From Vulcanimicrobiota bacterium (lineage in GTDB: Bacteria; Vulcanimicrobiota; Xenobia; Xenobiales; JADMJV01), in contig JBFWNU010000010.1 in assembly GCA_050250895.1 (NCBI GenBank), forward strand, positions 133,696 to 197,695: a DNA stretch of 64,000 nt. Reading direction: 5' to 3'. Made by a program: the position numbers and the translations under genes. Below are positions 59,490-64,000 of this stretch, piece after piece; position 1 is the stretch's first letter; each line of letters opens with the position of its first letter. The notes beneath the pieces were generated by a model that saw only the letters and a program-made list of their open reading frames with translations, was not told where the DNA came from and searched no databases.

Positions 59490-60143
59490 TTAGGCCGAAA
59501 CCTGAAACCGTTGCCTGAGGCCGTCGGCGTCGGTCCATGTCGCGCCGGGCAGGCTCGAGACCGAACCGCCTGGGTCCGGCGGTCCCGGGCCCCTGGCCAG
59601 GATGCTTTGCACTTGCTCGATTTGCCTGGCCACCTCGGGATCCCCGGGATCGAGTTGAAATTGGCGTTGGAGGATGGCCAGGCACTCATGGAGCCGGTCG
59701 GCCTGATAGAGCGCGCCCGCCAGGTGAAAGAAGACTTCTAGATGGTCTTCTGGCTGGTCCTCGATCAGCTCGAGAGCCTGGCGAAAGTAGTCGATGGCGG
59801 TGCCCAGTTGACCCAGGTTGCGGTAGCAGACGCCGGTTAGATGCACCGCCCAGGGGCGCATCTCGCTGTTGCGTGAGACCCGAAAAAATTGCCCGATGGC
59901 GGCTCGATAGCGAGCCGACTTGAAGTAGAGAAAGCCCAGACCAAAGTAGAGCGCGGGCTCTGGTTGCCGAGCCACCCGGTGCAACAGCTCTCTGGCGAAC
60001 GCCCGGCGTTGGTCGGCCGGGCAGACCTCGACCGTGATATCGGGCCGGCCCTGCTCGAGCGCCAGCCAGGCCACGGGCAAGGCGTGAGAACCGTCTTGCT
60101 GCCAGAGGGCGTAGAGCGAGTCCAATTGCTCTGTCGGAGTCAC
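59490..60143 (-). CDS. TPR protein
   Basis: YFGLGFLY, LTGVCYRNLGQ...AIDYFRQALE and FHLAGALY. Confidence 0.8.
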   Translation of the reverse strand: MTPTEQLDSLYALWQQDGSHALPVAWLALEQGRPDITVEVCPADQRRAFARELLHRVARQPEPALYFGLGFLYFKSARYRAAIGQFFRVSRNSEMRPWAVHLTGVCYRNLGQLGTAIDYFRQALELIEDQPEDHLEVFFHLAGALYQADRLHECLAILQRQFQLDPGDPEVARQIEQVQSILARGPGPPDPGGSVSSLPGATWTDADGLRQRFQVSA

Positions 60144-60259
60144 TCCGCTATCTTAACACGCTGCGGCGAGCACACGCGAGCCGAATCGGGCGCGGCGGCC
60201 TCGAGCCGATGTCGGCCCGGGCAAGCCTTCCCGGCTTACCTGAGCGGCCGGCCTTGCCC

Positions 60260-60805
60260 TTACTTGGCGTCTTCGAGGAGGCGTTCGACCAGACGCCAGT
60301 CACCCAGGCGATAGTGTTGGGCCAGTTGCATCGCCGTCTGCTTTCGCTCGTTCTCGAGAGCTGGCTTGGCCCCGCCCAGAAGCAACTCCTTGACCGTTTC
60401 CTCGTTGCCTGCACGGGCGGCGAGATGTAGGGGCGTGTTACCTGCTTTTTCGGGCAAGTTGGGGTTGGCACCCTGTTCCAGCAGATACCGACAAGCCGGC
60501 GTATGGCGATTGCTGGCGGCCAAATGCAGGGCGCTCAATCCATGGTGGTCGACGGCATCCCGATCGGCGCCGGCCTCGACGAGCAACTGGAGCATCTTCA
60601 GGTTGCCCGTGGTGGCGGCCAGGAGCAAGGCCGTGCGACCTTCATTGTTGCGGGCCTCCAGGTTGGAATCGGCTAGCACTGCTTGGGCCGCCTCCACGTC
60701 ACCGGCGATGGCGGCTCGTTGAAGTGGCGTTGAAGCGACGCGTTCGTTGGTCCAACCGGGTGCGACCAGAACCAGGACGAAGAGAGTGAGAAAGATAGAT
60801 TTCAT
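60260..60805 (-). CDS. Exported ankyrin-repeat protein
   Basis: Signal peptide; TPLQRAA, GRTALLLAA, SALHLAA and GNTPLHLAA. Confidence 0.9.
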   Translation of the reverse strand: MKSIFLTLFVLVLVAPGWTNERVASTPLQRAAIAGDVEAAQAVLADSNLEARNNEGRTALLLAATTGNLKMLQLLVEAGADRDAVDHHGLSALHLAASNRHTPACRYLLEQGANPNLPEKAGNTPLHLAARAGNEETVKELLLGGAKPALENERKQTAMQLAQHYRLGDWRLVERLLEDAK

Positions 60806-61074
60806 GGGGGCAGAGCAGTCCTTTCAGAACTCGAGGACCAAGCTCGAAGAGACTTCTGCGAAAGCGCGAGCCGGGCGGTAGAGGGTGCGGCGCGGCCGGA
60901 CCGGCGCGCGGGGTCCCCGGAGACGGGGAGAGGACTAGCGGTCACACCAGCCTCTCCCTGGTTTCGAGCCGGGCGACAATCGACCTTCTACTCGATGAGC
61001 AGCCGGTCCCCGATGATCGTGTTCCTTAGGGGAGCGCGAGCCGGGTGTTTCACCCGGCCCGCGAAACGAGCCGC

Positions 61075-62106
61075 TCAGACGGCTTCCAGCACCTTGGCGC
61101 GCGGTAGCACTCCGTTGAGCTTCACTGCTTGCTCCGAGAGCACGCTGGCGAAGATCAGTGGGACTACGATGGTGGCATCGGATTCGATCATGAAGCGGGG
61201 GGTGTCGTGGCCTAGCTTCTCCCAGGTGATCTTCTCGTTAGGAGTGGCCCCCGAGTAAGAGCCGTAGCTGGTGGTCGAGTCCGACACCTGGCAGAAGTAG
61301 CCCCACAGGGGCACTTCTTCCTCGATGTCCTGGCGCAACATCGGGACCACGCAGATGGGAAAATCGCCGGCGATGCCACCGCCGATTTGAAAGAAGCCGA
61401 TCCGGCCGTCACGGCTTTCGCGTTGGTACCAGCCGGCTAGCTCCATCATATACTCGATGCCGCTCTTGACCAGCGAGGGGCTCTTGATGTCGCCGCGCAG
61501 GCAGTGGCCGGCAAAGATGTTGCCGGTGGTCGAGTCCTCCCAGCCCGGCACGAAGATGGGCAGGTTGCGCTCGCAAGCGGCCACCAGCCAACTGTCGTCG
61601 GTGTCGATCTGGTAGAAGTGCTCGAGTTTGCCCGAGCGGATGATGCGATAGAGAAATTCGTGGGGAAAGAGGCGCTCGCCGGCCGCCTGGGCGGCCAGCC
61701 ACTCTTCGAGCAACACGCCCTCTACCCGGCGAATGGCCTCGGCTTCGGGAATGCAAGTGTCGGTCACGCGATTGAGATTGCGTTCGAGGAGAGCGGCTTC
61801 ATCCTGCGGGGTCAAGTTGCGCCAACCAGGAATCCGTTCATAGTGGTCGTGGGCTACCAGATTGAAGAGGTCTTCCTCCAGATTGGCCCCCGTACAACTG
61901 ATGGCGTGGACTTTGTCCATCCTGATCATCTCGGCTAGCGACAGTCCTAGCTCGGCGGTACTCATGGCTCCCGCCATGGCGACCAGCATCTTACCGTCAG
62001 CCTCGATCAGAGCTCGGTAACCCTCCGCCGCGTCAACTAGCGCGGCTGCGTTGAAGTGCCGAAAGTGGTGGCGCAAGAAGGCCCTCACCTCTCCGCAATG
62101 TTTCAT
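61075..62106 (-). CDS. Deoxyhypusine synthase-like protein (probable homospermidine synthesis)
   Basis: FRHFNAA, AGAMSTAELG, CTGANLEED, IGGGIAGDF and GSYSGATPNEKITW. Confidence 0.9.
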   Translation of the reverse strand: MKHCGEVRAFLRHHFRHFNAAALVDAAEGYRALIEADGKMLVAMAGAMSTAELGLSLAEMIRMDKVHAISCTGANLEEDLFNLVAHDHYERIPGWRNLTPQDEAALLERNLNRVTDTCIPEAEAIRRVEGVLLEEWLAAQAAGERLFPHEFLYRIIRSGKLEHFYQIDTDDSWLVAACERNLPIFVPGWEDSTTGNIFAGHCLRGDIKSPSLVKSGIEYMMELAGWYQRESRDGRIGFFQIGGGIAGDFPICVVPMLRQDIEEEVPLWGYFCQVSDSTTSYGSYSGATPNEKITWEKLGHDTPRFMIESDATIVVPLIFASVLSEQAVKLNGVLPRAKVLEAV

Positions 62107-63014
62107 CTTTCACGCTCCCTTTCAGGTGGATTGCTTGCTTTCACAAGATTGATCAGCCGATAGACCAGTTTGGCCACGGCAAACTCTGCGTAATGTAGTC
62201 CGGGTTGGGGGGCAAGTTCCACGCAATCAAACCCGACTACGTGGGGGGCCGCCAGCCGGAAGATCTCCTCGGTCTGCAGCCAGGTAAGACCGAACGGCTC
62301 GGGCGTACCGGTGGCCGGCACGATGGAGGGGTCGAGGCCGTCGACATCCAGGCTAAAGAAGACCCGGCGGCCCTTCAGGCGAGCCCGGAATTCGTCTTGC
62401 CAGCCGCCCTGGTGAATCTCTTCAGTGGACCAGACTCGATAGCGGTCGGGACTCGAGCGGGCGAAGGCCACCTCTTCGGGGCACACCGAGCGAACACCCA
62501 GGTGAAGAATCTGCTCGACACCAGGCTCTTCGGCCAGGCGCCGCGCCACCGAGGCGTGGCTCAGGCGATCGCCCTCATACTGGTCGCGGTAATCGGCGTG
62601 GGCGTCGATGATGACCACCGTCAGGGGACCACCCAAACCGCGCAAAAGGCCGCGGCCGGTGCCCAGGCTGATGGTGTGTTCGCCTCCCAGAACGCCCACT
62701 AGTTTGCCCTGGCGGGCAAACTCGGCCACGCGAGTGGCCAGACGCTCGAGCGAATCGATGACGCTTCCGCCTACATTGATTGGGTCGGCGGTATGAATCC
62801 CATAATCCAAAGCCATCTCGCGCTCGAACTCGCGATCATAGAGTTCGACCTGACAGGAGGCTTCAAGGATTGCCTGTGGGCCGCTTGCGGTTCCGCTTCC
62901 ATAAGAGACCGAGGCTTCGAGTGGACATGCGATCAGCACGACCTCGGAGGTGTTTGGCAGGGAAGCAGAAGAAGGGAGCCCCAGGAAGGGCACCCCTACA
63001 GCTGGCTGTTTCAA
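62103..63014 (-). CDS. speB: Agmatinase (ureohydrolase)
   Basis: GGEHTIS, DAHAD, SHAS, DVDGLDP and PATGTPEP; TTG start with no clear SD. Confidence 0.9.
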   Translation of the reverse strand: MKQPAVGVPFLGLPSSASLPNTSEVVLIACPLEASVSYGSGTASGPQAILEASCQVELYDREFEREMALDYGIHTADPINVGGSVIDSLERLATRVAEFARQGKLVGVLGGEHTISLGTGRGLLRGLGGPLTVVIIDAHADYRDQYEGDRLSHASVARRLAEEPGVEQILHLGVRSVCPEEVAFARSSPDRYRVWSTEEIHQGGWQDEFRARLKGRRVFFSLDVDGLDPSIVPATGTPEPFGLTWLQTEEIFRLAAPHVVGFDCVELAPQPGLHYAEFAVAKLVYRLINLVKASNPPERERER

Positions 63015-63021
63015 TGTGCAG

Positions 63022-63084
63022 CTAGCTCGGGATGCCGGATTCGTTATTGACGGAATATACGAGTCTAGTGACTACGGTAAACAT
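63022..63084 (-). CDS. Putative leader peptide MFTVVTRLVYSVNNESGIPS (20 aa)
   Basis: GGAGA 8 nt before ATG 63084; TAG ends 7 nt before the speB TTG. Confidence 0.6.
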   Translation of the reverse strand: MFTVVTRLVYSVNNESGIPS

Positions 63085-63178
63085 TCTAAAGGTCTCCAAT
63101 ACCAACGCCGAAACGTTGAAAATCGGGCGTTTCCTTAGAGACCACTCAGAATGGTCCGCCGTAACCTTCCCAGAATAA

Positions 63179-63207
63179 AAGATAGGGCCCCGACCCCCCT
63201 TTGTCAA
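63179..63207 (-). promoter_or_regulatory. Sigma-70 promoter of the leader-speB-DHS operon
   Basis: Minus strand reads TTGACA-N17-TATCTT. Confidence 0.7.
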
Positions 63208-63268
63208 TAGGTGGGGGCACCCAATTTCGGACCGAAGGTTTCCGGCTGGCCGCCTGAGAATACGGGGA

Positions 63269-63643
63269 TTGGTGAAAGCATACATCCTGATAGTCGACGA
63301 TGAGCCGGGCTACACCGACATGGTGAGCATGATTCTCAAGCAAGCCGGCTACGAGACTGTCTCGGCTCACAACGGCGACGAGGCTTTGCGTCGACACGAT
63401 GAACGCCCCGCCGACCTGTGGCTGCTCGACATTTTTATGCCTGACAAGGATGGCTTCGAGGCGCTGCGCGAATTGCGGAGTCGGGGCGAACAGGTGCCGG
63501 TGATCTGCGTCTCGTCTTCGTCGGTCAAGGAGTATCTCGAGATCGCCGAGCGGATGGGGGCCGTCGGCACCTTGCGCAAACCCTTCGACCCCGAGGACCT
63601 GGTCCATCTCGTCGACCGGGCCCTGGCCACCGCTCGCCACTAG
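63269..63643 (+). CDS. Single-domain response regulator
   Basis: ILIVDDE, LLDIFMPDKDG and KPF. Confidence 0.9.
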   Translation: MVKAYILIVDDEPGYTDMVSMILKQAGYETVSAHNGDEALRRHDERPADLWLLDIFMPDKDGFEALRELRSRGEQVPVICVSSSSVKEYLEIAERMGAVGTLRKPFDPEDLVHLVDRALATARH

Positions 63644-63659
63644 TCCGAAAGGCCCACCG

Positions 63660-64000
63660 CCGCGGACAGGCGACTTCCGCGCGGAAGAAGCTGCGCCCCA
63701 AGTGGCCTGGGTCGGCCAGCCGCGAGACACCTGGTCGACTTCCGCACGGAAGAAGGTGCGCCCCCAAGTGGCCTGGGCCGGCCTGCCGCGAGCCACCTCG
63801 GCAACTTCCATCTGGGTAGGCGACTTCCGCACGGAAGAAAAGCACCGACCAGGCTGCGAGACCCTGGTCGACGTCCGCGCGGAAGAAGGCACCGCCGTGC
63901 GGATAGGCCTGGGTCGGCCAGCCGCGAGACACCTGGTCGACTTCCGCGCGGAAGAAAGCGCCGTGCGGACAGGCGACTTCCGCGCGGAAGAAAAGCGCCG
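63660..64000. repeat. Mosaic palindromic repeat cluster (REP/BIME-like), runs off the window
   Basis: Core CGACTTCCGCRCGGAAGAA at 63671, 63736, 63821, 63869 (one mismatch), 63938 and 63974. Confidence 0.8.

Follow-up and report, generated by a model that had tools for sequence, protein, structure and literature searches.

How is an operon translated when its first gene starts at a TTG with no Shine-Dalgarno (SD) sequence in front of it, and the good SD just upstream serves a 20-codon reading frame instead? The question is raised by a putative polyamine operon in a stretch of 64,000 nucleotides (nt) from a Vulcanimicrobiota bacterium (the window: contig JBFWNU010000010.1, positions 133,696 to 197,695), in which an agmatinase-like gene, speB, is followed by a gene of the deoxyhypusine synthase (DHS) family. 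An earlier note on this DNA proposed that the small upstream open reading frame (uORF) encodes a sensor, with polyamine-dependent stalling or termination at its Pro-Ser-stop ending. Comparison with related loci points to a different part of the leader. The sensor is most likely an invariant and previously undescribed RNA motif at the 5' end, rather than the Pro-Ser ending. On balance, the best explanation is that this motif gates the uORF and that the uORF relays ribosomes to speB by termination and reinitiation. The main features are the following, in window coordinates, which here and below refer to the minus strand unless marked (+).

63179..63207, minus strand: sigma-70-type promoter, with -35 TTGACA at 63207-63202, a G-rich 17-nt spacer and -10 TATCTT at 63184-63179.
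63161..63172, minus strand: 5' box of the leader motif, UGGGAAGGUUAC, 6-7 nt downstream of the -10; GGGAAGGTT and a C invariant in 14/14 loci.
63140..63156, minus strand: hairpin P2, GACCAU-UCUGA-GUGGUC, between the boxes; variable in sequence and length.
63124..63132, minus strand: 3' box, AAACGCCCG; AAAC and CCC invariant in 14/14 loci.
63022..63084, minus strand: uORF of 20 codons plus TAG, encoding MFTVVTRLVYSVNNESGIPS; ATG at 63084, TAG at 63024-63022.
62989..63036, minus strand: predicted stop-start hairpin, -25 kcal/mol, z -3.49, 1 of 200 shuffles as good.
62103..63014, minus strand: arginase-family ureohydrolase gene, speB-like, 303 residues, TTG start without SD.
61075..62106, minus strand: DHS-family gene, SpeY-like, 343 residues, Pfam DS E 6.5e-38.

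The motif consists of UGGGAAGGUU(A/G)C, a variable hairpin and AAAC(G/A)CCC, and it stands at the predicted transcript start. The comparison set is made up of 14 loci from three genera of one family (f1): the window, seven loci of the sister genus g3 and six of genus g2. In the 14 cores, 18 columns are invariant (GGGAAGGTT, C, G, AAAC and CCC). The sequence TTGAC precedes the motif by 34-36 nt in 13 of the 14 loci, and the SD and start codon of a uORF follow it in all 14, a layout that is beyond chance. Because of this TTGAC distance and the 6-7 nt that separate it from the -10, the motif should be the 5' end of the mRNA. Between the boxes, the relatives carry inserts of 9 to about 95 nt, each closed by the invariant C and G. 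Such a range rules out a DNA site of fixed spacing and argues for an RNA hairpin joining the boxes. The second pair of P2 is U-A or U.G in g3 and C-G in g2. RNAalifold pairs GGG with CCC and GUU with AAC, and leaves AAG opposite a single purine.

Contigs assembled from sequencing runs of relatives about 96.5% identical to the window (shares of words 0.05-0.18) cover part of the leader. Those from two RNA libraries of one study span 62847-63159 and 62852-63151; at the motif they end 13-21 nt short of 63172, and the DNA contigs continue. These ends are at most a weak hint at the 5' end of the transcript, since carry-over of DNA is possible. The other break, at 62847-62852, is one of assembly and not a transcript end, because the DNA contigs break there too. 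All 11 differences from the window in these libraries spare the SD, the start codons and the boxes as far as the contigs cover them, namely the 3' box and the final base of the 5' box.

The earlier note's outline of the locus was sound. The promoter is where it was placed (three promoter-like sites occur in the region 60000-64000, with 0.5 expected from shuffles), and the AT-richer leader, given as about 160 nt, measures ~158 nt at 0.48 G+C versus 0.633 for the window. The SD, GGAGA at 63097-63093, does belong to the 20-codon frame. The speB TTG at 63014 comes 7 nt past the uORF stop with GGAG, GAGG and AGGA all absent in front of it, and a DHS-like gene does follow speB. The speB-like protein matches Pfam Arginase with E 3.6e-58 and passes the NCBIfam agmatinase model TIGR01230 (185.7 bits, cut-off 174.3). 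The ATG of the DHS-like gene overlaps the speB TGA as ATGA, with GGGAG upstream. Of the two hairpins that were listed, gaccat/gtggtc exists (63156-63140); aacgcc/ggcgtt is possible, but it competes with a local hairpin, CAACGU-UUCG-GCGUUG, at 63118-63103. What the note overlooked is the invariant 5' motif, together with the hairpin around the uORF stop and the TTG.

A link of this operon to polyamines, as the earlier note had it, is reasonable given its likeness to the agmatine/SpeY homospermidine pathway (PMC13625781). Bacterial DHS homologues (SpeY) have been described that join two agmatines to form N1,N9-bis(guanidino)homospermidine, and SpeY-associated agmatinase homologues hydrolyse this product to homospermidine (PMC13625781, 2026). 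In the window and in 7/7 g3 loci a DHS-fold gene likewise adjoins an agmatinase homologue. Judged from its genes, the operon probably makes homospermidine from agmatine, and the speB-like product is possibly a bis(guanidino)homospermidine ureohydrolase.

The motif is tied to one pathway. Of 41 related genomes searched at the protein level, seven of g3 carry speB orthologues with 48-54% identity, each followed by a DHS-like gene with 70-74% identity. The layout in all seven is that of the window: promoter, (U/C)GGGAAGGUUAC, variable hairpin, AAAC(G/A)CCC, in some a second variable hairpin, GGAGG, uORF and speB. The g3 uORFs have 18-26 codons and stop 2-5 nt ahead of an ATG or GTG of speB. Run against 40 genomes of the order, a covariance model (R1) built from the eight speB-linked loci hit 14, once per genome and without exception in family f1. 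Six of these are g2 genomes, where motif and uORF (10-25 codons) immediately precede the DHS-like gene and no speB intervenes. A search of 41 genomes with the DHS-like protein located full-length copies in exactly the 14 genomes with the motif, and every one of the 14 motif instances found lies upstream of the DHS-like operon. The motif is absent from one g3 genome, which also has no DHS-like gene, and from the only other genome of the window's genus. In the latter, a 1.9-kb contig (L187, G001:C420:169-393) carries a 75-residue DHS-like fragment with an internal TGA and no motif; the operon there may be decaying or unassembled.

No motif turned up in genomes without the DHS-like gene among 40 of the order and 151 of the phylum. 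The phylum scan, made with a core model (R2), gave no convincing match in the other 137 genomes, but its filter recovered just 8 of the 14 known sites, so that absence elsewhere is weakly supported. Two R2 matches outside the family (E about 0.01) are not the motif. In another family of the phylum (f13), a DHS-like gene 65% identical to that of the window has neither motif nor uORF. About 120 nt upstream of this gene (L198-L201), the family has a conserved AT-rich leader of its own; it includes a hairpin, ACAGCA-GT-TGCTGT, and an SD immediately ahead of the ATG.

The motif has no match in Rfam 15. The window segment 62800-63400 gave only sbrA (E 1.6, 16.3 bits, gathering score 45), and 13 related loci (40,166 bases) gave no match at E <= 1. 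A pattern scan of species-representative genomes returned at least 119 stretches, and among the matches listed five adjoin speB or DHS. Among the matches listed, the g3 loci alone are genuine (L136 is the L002 leader, cut by the locus end) and the rest look like chance, a few hundred chance matches being expected by arithmetic. A match in Clostridia (L073), for example, sits at the end of a coding frame. In three Paenibacillus species (L094 3540-3574, L112 670-704 and L124 6882-6916) the two boxes occur on either side of a 2-bp hairpin, an arrangement very similar to the short g3 form. This element, which has no Rfam match, lies ~118 nt upstream of a gene for a small protein rich in His, Gly and Tyr whose C-terminus carries a membrane helix; the resemblance may be accidental, or the element may be distantly related to the motif and associated with another gene. 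A metagenome scan returned nine stretches, three of them true and near-identical to L004 or L007 and six unrelated, and so yielded almost no new diversity.

A further conserved element joins the end of the uORF to the start of speB. At the eight speB-linked loci, the gap from uORF stop to speB start is 2, 2, 2, 2, 2, 4, 5 and 7 nt, and single-sequence folds of the 60 nt around the stop predict a hairpin in every case. The end of the uORF, with or abutting its stop, forms the 5' arm, the speB start lies in the loop or upper stem, and the first speB codons form the 3' arm. In the window, the 5' arm is made of the last uORF codons and UAG, the 10-nt apical loop CACAUUGAAA holds the speB UUG, and the 3' arm consists of speB codons 3-9. 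Against dinucleotide shuffles, the z values range from -1.1 to -4.8, with 6/8 at -2.3 or lower. The hairpin sequences vary from locus to locus; L005 and L006 differ at three pairs, each of them changed on both sides (CCGAGCU/AGCUCGG versus CCAGGU/ACCUGG). RNAalifold returned 0 pairs for the stop-start region, a failure due to the different registers of the hairpins in the MAFFT alignment. In g3, the first ~25 codons of the ureohydrolases (L002-L008) encode an additional N-terminal stretch, marked by a conserved G-C-x-P-(D/N)...G-G segment, that the window protein does not have, and part of this extension encodes the 3' arm of the hairpin.

Since the SD belongs to the uORF and the uORF stop lies 2-7 nt before speB within a hairpin at all eight loci, the anatomy makes it very probable that translation of the uORF gates speB and the DHS-like gene. 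That part of the earlier note's proposal stands; gating through polyamine-dependent stalling at Pro-Ser-stop does not. Fusion of uORF and speB by frameshifting was considered and rejected: the offset is +1 in the window, but relatives are at +1 or +2 and have clear ATG starts. Translational coupling by termination and reinitiation, in which structure occludes a start codon until the upstream cistron is translated, is a classic arrangement in operons and behind leader reading frames. The same ingredients are found here, with stop and start 2-7 nt apart and an SD-less start in a hairpin to which the end of the upstream frame contributes the 5' arm. What differs is that the upstream cistron is a frame of 10-26 codons with no conserved sequence, that its ribosome-binding site lies directly behind an invariant RNA motif, and that g2 keeps the uORF without the coupling.

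The comparison shows this anatomy, its conservation and an exclusive tie to the DHS-like gene; from these we infer the role of the motif as sensor, the direction of the switch, the ligand and the reinitiation. The transcript would start at the two-box motif, whose boxes would pair (GGG:CCC and GUU:AAC) to form an irregular 5' hairpin with purine-rich internal loops. By binding a small molecule or a factor tied to the pathway, this hairpin would set the accessibility of the uORF ribosome-binding site. A ribosome translating the uORF would melt the hairpin that holds the uORF stop and the SD-less speB start, terminate, and re-initiate 2-7 nt downstream at speB, which would in turn be coupled to the DHS-like gene (through the ATGA overlap in the window). 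As one part of this explanation, held with the same moderate confidence as the whole, the peptide sequence of the uORF would not matter.

Predicted folds of the leader bear on the first step, and two further features of the window enter into them.

63103..63118, minus strand: hairpin P3, CAACGU-UUCG-GCGUUG; variable in relatives.
63091..63099, minus strand: ribosome-binding region of the uORF, UUGGAGACC, with the SD at 63097-63093; paired with GGUCUCUAA (63142-63134) in the minimum free energy (MFE) fold.

The window leader has an MFE of -42.4 kcal/mol (z -4.81, 0/200 shuffles as stable), and that fold sequesters the uORF SD and AUG in a long helix formed with the 3' half of the inter-box hairpin. 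In the ~96.5%-identical relative, 63113 U>C turns a U.G pair of P3 into C-G and so strengthens this hairpin, and two other changes fall in the P3 loop. In the long g3 leaders the MFE fold pairs AAAACGCCCG with CCGGAGGUUUU, and in 6/6 g2 leaders a bipartite hairpin beginning immediately past the 3' box contains SD and AUG. The ribosome-binding site of the uORF is buried in local or long-range helices in every version. When folds were forced to form the box helix, the helices over the ribosome-binding site were freed or weakened in each case, and this modelling suggests that the box helix is the 'on' state. Pairing of the 5' box with the uORF start was rejected, the duplex energies lying at the 0.11-0.90 quantile of random windows. 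A role of the 3' box as a specific anti-SD is not supported (quantiles 0.05-0.74), though the pairing is drawn in several MFE folds.

Several observations weigh against this explanation. The pairs GGG:CCC and GUU:AAC show no covariation because they never vary, and the fold of the motif core is for that reason unproven. Eleven of 13 folded leaders are thermodynamically unremarkable (z +0.8 to -1.8), and complementarity of the boxes to the ribosome-binding site or to the uORF start is no better than that of random windows from the same loci. In g2, 43-127 nt separate the uORF stop from a DHS-like start preceded by a strong SD of its own, which excludes a relay of this kind in that genus; the g2 uORF must act differently, perhaps via Rho, or may be a remnant. 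With ordinary duplex energies, mostly unremarkable leaders and a separate SD in g2, the switch geometry is conjecture. An SD-less start is in itself not unusual here, since SD-like 4-mers precede only 13 of 54 crude long open reading frames of the window (0.17 for random 17-mers). The 14 loci are kin and represent perhaps a handful of independent lineages. Finally, the DHS-like protein scores far under the NCBIfam cut-offs for characterised homospermidine/G44G synthases (105.7 bits versus 450 for NF001980, 90.7 versus 500 for NF002699). It differs in this from the DHS homologues of the SpeY and G44G-ureohydrolase pathway, and the pathway is therefore assigned by resemblance.

The leader is best read as a new cis-regulatory RNA, and it is possibly a riboswitch. 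A narrower proposal, that the two-box motif is a new riboswitch class for homospermidine, bis(guanidino)homospermidine or agmatine that acts via a relay uORF and not at the enzyme's own start, is put forward as a tentative possibility. The sole natural polyamine riboswitch class found in the literature is the spermidine class, a variant of the S-adenosylmethionine (SAM)-I riboswitch (PMC10853860). As here, it is a cis-acting leader RNA before polyamine biosynthesis genes. It is described as a four-way-junction aptamer that acts by transcription termination (PMC10853860), in contrast to the ~45-nt two-box hairpin of the present leaders, which stands before an SD and a uORF, has no match to any SAM family or other model in Rfam, and is a candidate for ligand binding. 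In sequence the two are unrelated. If the proposal is true, polyamine pathways would have a second natural riboswitch with no relation to the spermidine class, and speY would have its first described regulatory element. Only recently was the agmatine/SpeY route to homospermidine itself generalised; the words 'riboswitch' and 'leader' have 0 occurrences each in the available text of that paper (PMC13625781), and no description of speY regulation was found in the literature either. A compact RNA of ~45 nt, invariant across three genera, would allow binding to be tested in vitro without culturing the organisms. The locus would also illustrate cleanly, in a natural setting, how a relay uORF can unlock a start codon placed in a hairpin loop whatever the sequence of the uORF.

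The motif could instead be the operator of a protein, either an RNA-binding regulator or the operon's own enzyme, that represses or activates initiation at the uORF without any metabolite aptamer. A single copy per genome tied to one operon, the narrow distribution within one family, invariant bases in an irregular helix without covariation and the GGA-containing purine tracts found in both the 5' box and the SD are all what such an operator might be expected to display. No candidate protein has been identified, however, and the computation does not separate an operator of this kind from a riboswitch. This alternative is considered rather unlikely.

Control might also be exerted on transcription, with translation of the uORF, or a ribosome bound at its end, deciding Rho-dependent or intrinsic termination in the leader as in tnaC and speFL, and with the stop-start hairpin secondary. 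The g2 loci are the best ground for this: the spacers of 43-127 nt between uORF and DHS-like gene are C-rich and G-poor in 6/6 (C 0.33-0.42, G 0.13-0.23), and the DHS-like gene has an SD of its own, so that coupling cannot explain the uORF there. One g2 locus (L167) has, as read by eye, a hairpin and a U-rich tract just past the uORF stop. Yet the g2 spacers are not conserved in sequence, the window leader has no terminator-like site save one inside the promoter spacer, and the stop-start gap in the window and in g3 leaves no room for a Rho-utilization (rut) site. As a general account, the transcriptional route is thus quite unlikely. The arrest peptides SpeFL (10.1101/604074) and TnaC resemble the present systems in that a short leader frame precedes polyamine or catabolic genes, and the C-rich spacer after the g2 uORF is a further likeness. 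The SpeFL and TnaC peptides, as reported, are conserved in sequence; those of the present uORFs are not.

This difference bears on the proposal of the earlier note that the uORF peptide itself is the sensor, whereby polyamine-dependent stalling or slow termination at Pro-Ser-stop, related to elongation factor P (EF-P) and comparable to the action of eIF5A on yeast HOL1, would set the output of speB and the DHS-like gene. There are real precedents in the eukaryotic Pro-Ser-stop and MAGDIS-stop uORFs of HOL1 and AdoMetDC (PMC10855120) and in SpeFL (10.1101/604074), and in the window, too, a uORF ending in Pro-Ser stands ahead of a polyamine gene. The uORFs of the window and L005 end in GIPS, and that of L006 in GIPG. 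In the ~96.5%-identical relative, both substitutions in the uORF (63049 and 63052) are third-position and synonymous (2/2, p roughly 0.06-0.1 by arithmetic).

The wider comparison goes the other way. A conserved uORF ending NNExxIPS-stop with synonymous variation, which the earlier note had suggested looking for, is not found among the 14 loci. Two of the uORFs end in IPS (window and L005) and one in IPG (L006); the other 11 endings are unrelated (AAT twice, and RSS, IKK, TRE, FLL, LRL, VFV, FPF, LRI and FWS once each), the lengths vary from 10 to 26 codons, and the L002 uORF is without proline. Eight of the 14 peptides begin with Met-Cys, and otherwise there is no alignment across genera. The pooled ratio of nonsynonymous to synonymous change (pN/pS) in 10 pairs is 0.61 in frame, and these nucleotides give 0.84 and 0.66 when read in the two shifted frames; by this comparison, which has low power, the peptide is not under frame-specific constraint. 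The G-I-P codons common to the window, L005 and L006 are explained by RNA structure: their nucleotides, GGCAUYCC, make up the 5' arm of the stop-start hairpin, and a comparison of L005 with L006 shows them changing in concert with the 3' arm. Moreover, a ribosome held at the uORF stop would be expected to cover the speB start 2-7 nt away, not to expose it. The eukaryotic uORFs repress the main reading frame when termination stalls (PMC10855120), whereas the anatomy here implies positive coupling. A peptide sensor is therefore very unlikely, and the parallel with the eukaryotic Pro-Ser-stop uORFs is probably coincidental. Feedback through polyproline and EF-P was rejected, since a PPVP occurs only in L172. 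An attenuator based on Arg codons is not consistent with the set, in which tandem Arg occurs in 3/14 uORFs, all of them in g2.

Least probable of all is that uORF and hairpin are incidental, with speB initiating alone (at the TTG or at an in-frame GTG, codon 8) and the motif affecting mRNA stability or being a conserved promoter-proximal DNA site, for even though a 20-codon open frame is expected by arithmetic after any ATG at 63% G+C, SD use looks low in this genome and leader stabilities are mostly unremarkable, the SD and start are kept in 14/14 loci, the uORF stop stays 2-7 nt from the speB start in 8/8 within a hairpin kept despite changed sequences, and a box spacing of 9 to about 95 nt would be intolerable for a DNA-binding dimer.

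Some other features surround the operon promoter. Its spacer (63185-63201 in the window) has a conserved G-run followed by GGNCC, e.g., aaggggggtcggggccc, and the same is observed in two g3 loci (L161 and L162) and in 6/6 g2 loci (L167-L172); a transcription factor that acts at the same promoter might use it as an operator. Divergent from the promoter, at 63269-63643 (+), lies a gene for a single-domain response-regulator receiver (Pfam Response_reg E 1.6e-27). Downstream of this gene, at 63662-63992 and running off the window end, there are at least six copies of a 28-nt element with a perfect palindrome, CTTCCGCGCGGAAG, nested in four copies of a ~56-nt unit with a spacing of 66-69 nt; the cluster looks like an intergenic repeat array of the repetitive extragenic palindromic (REP) type.

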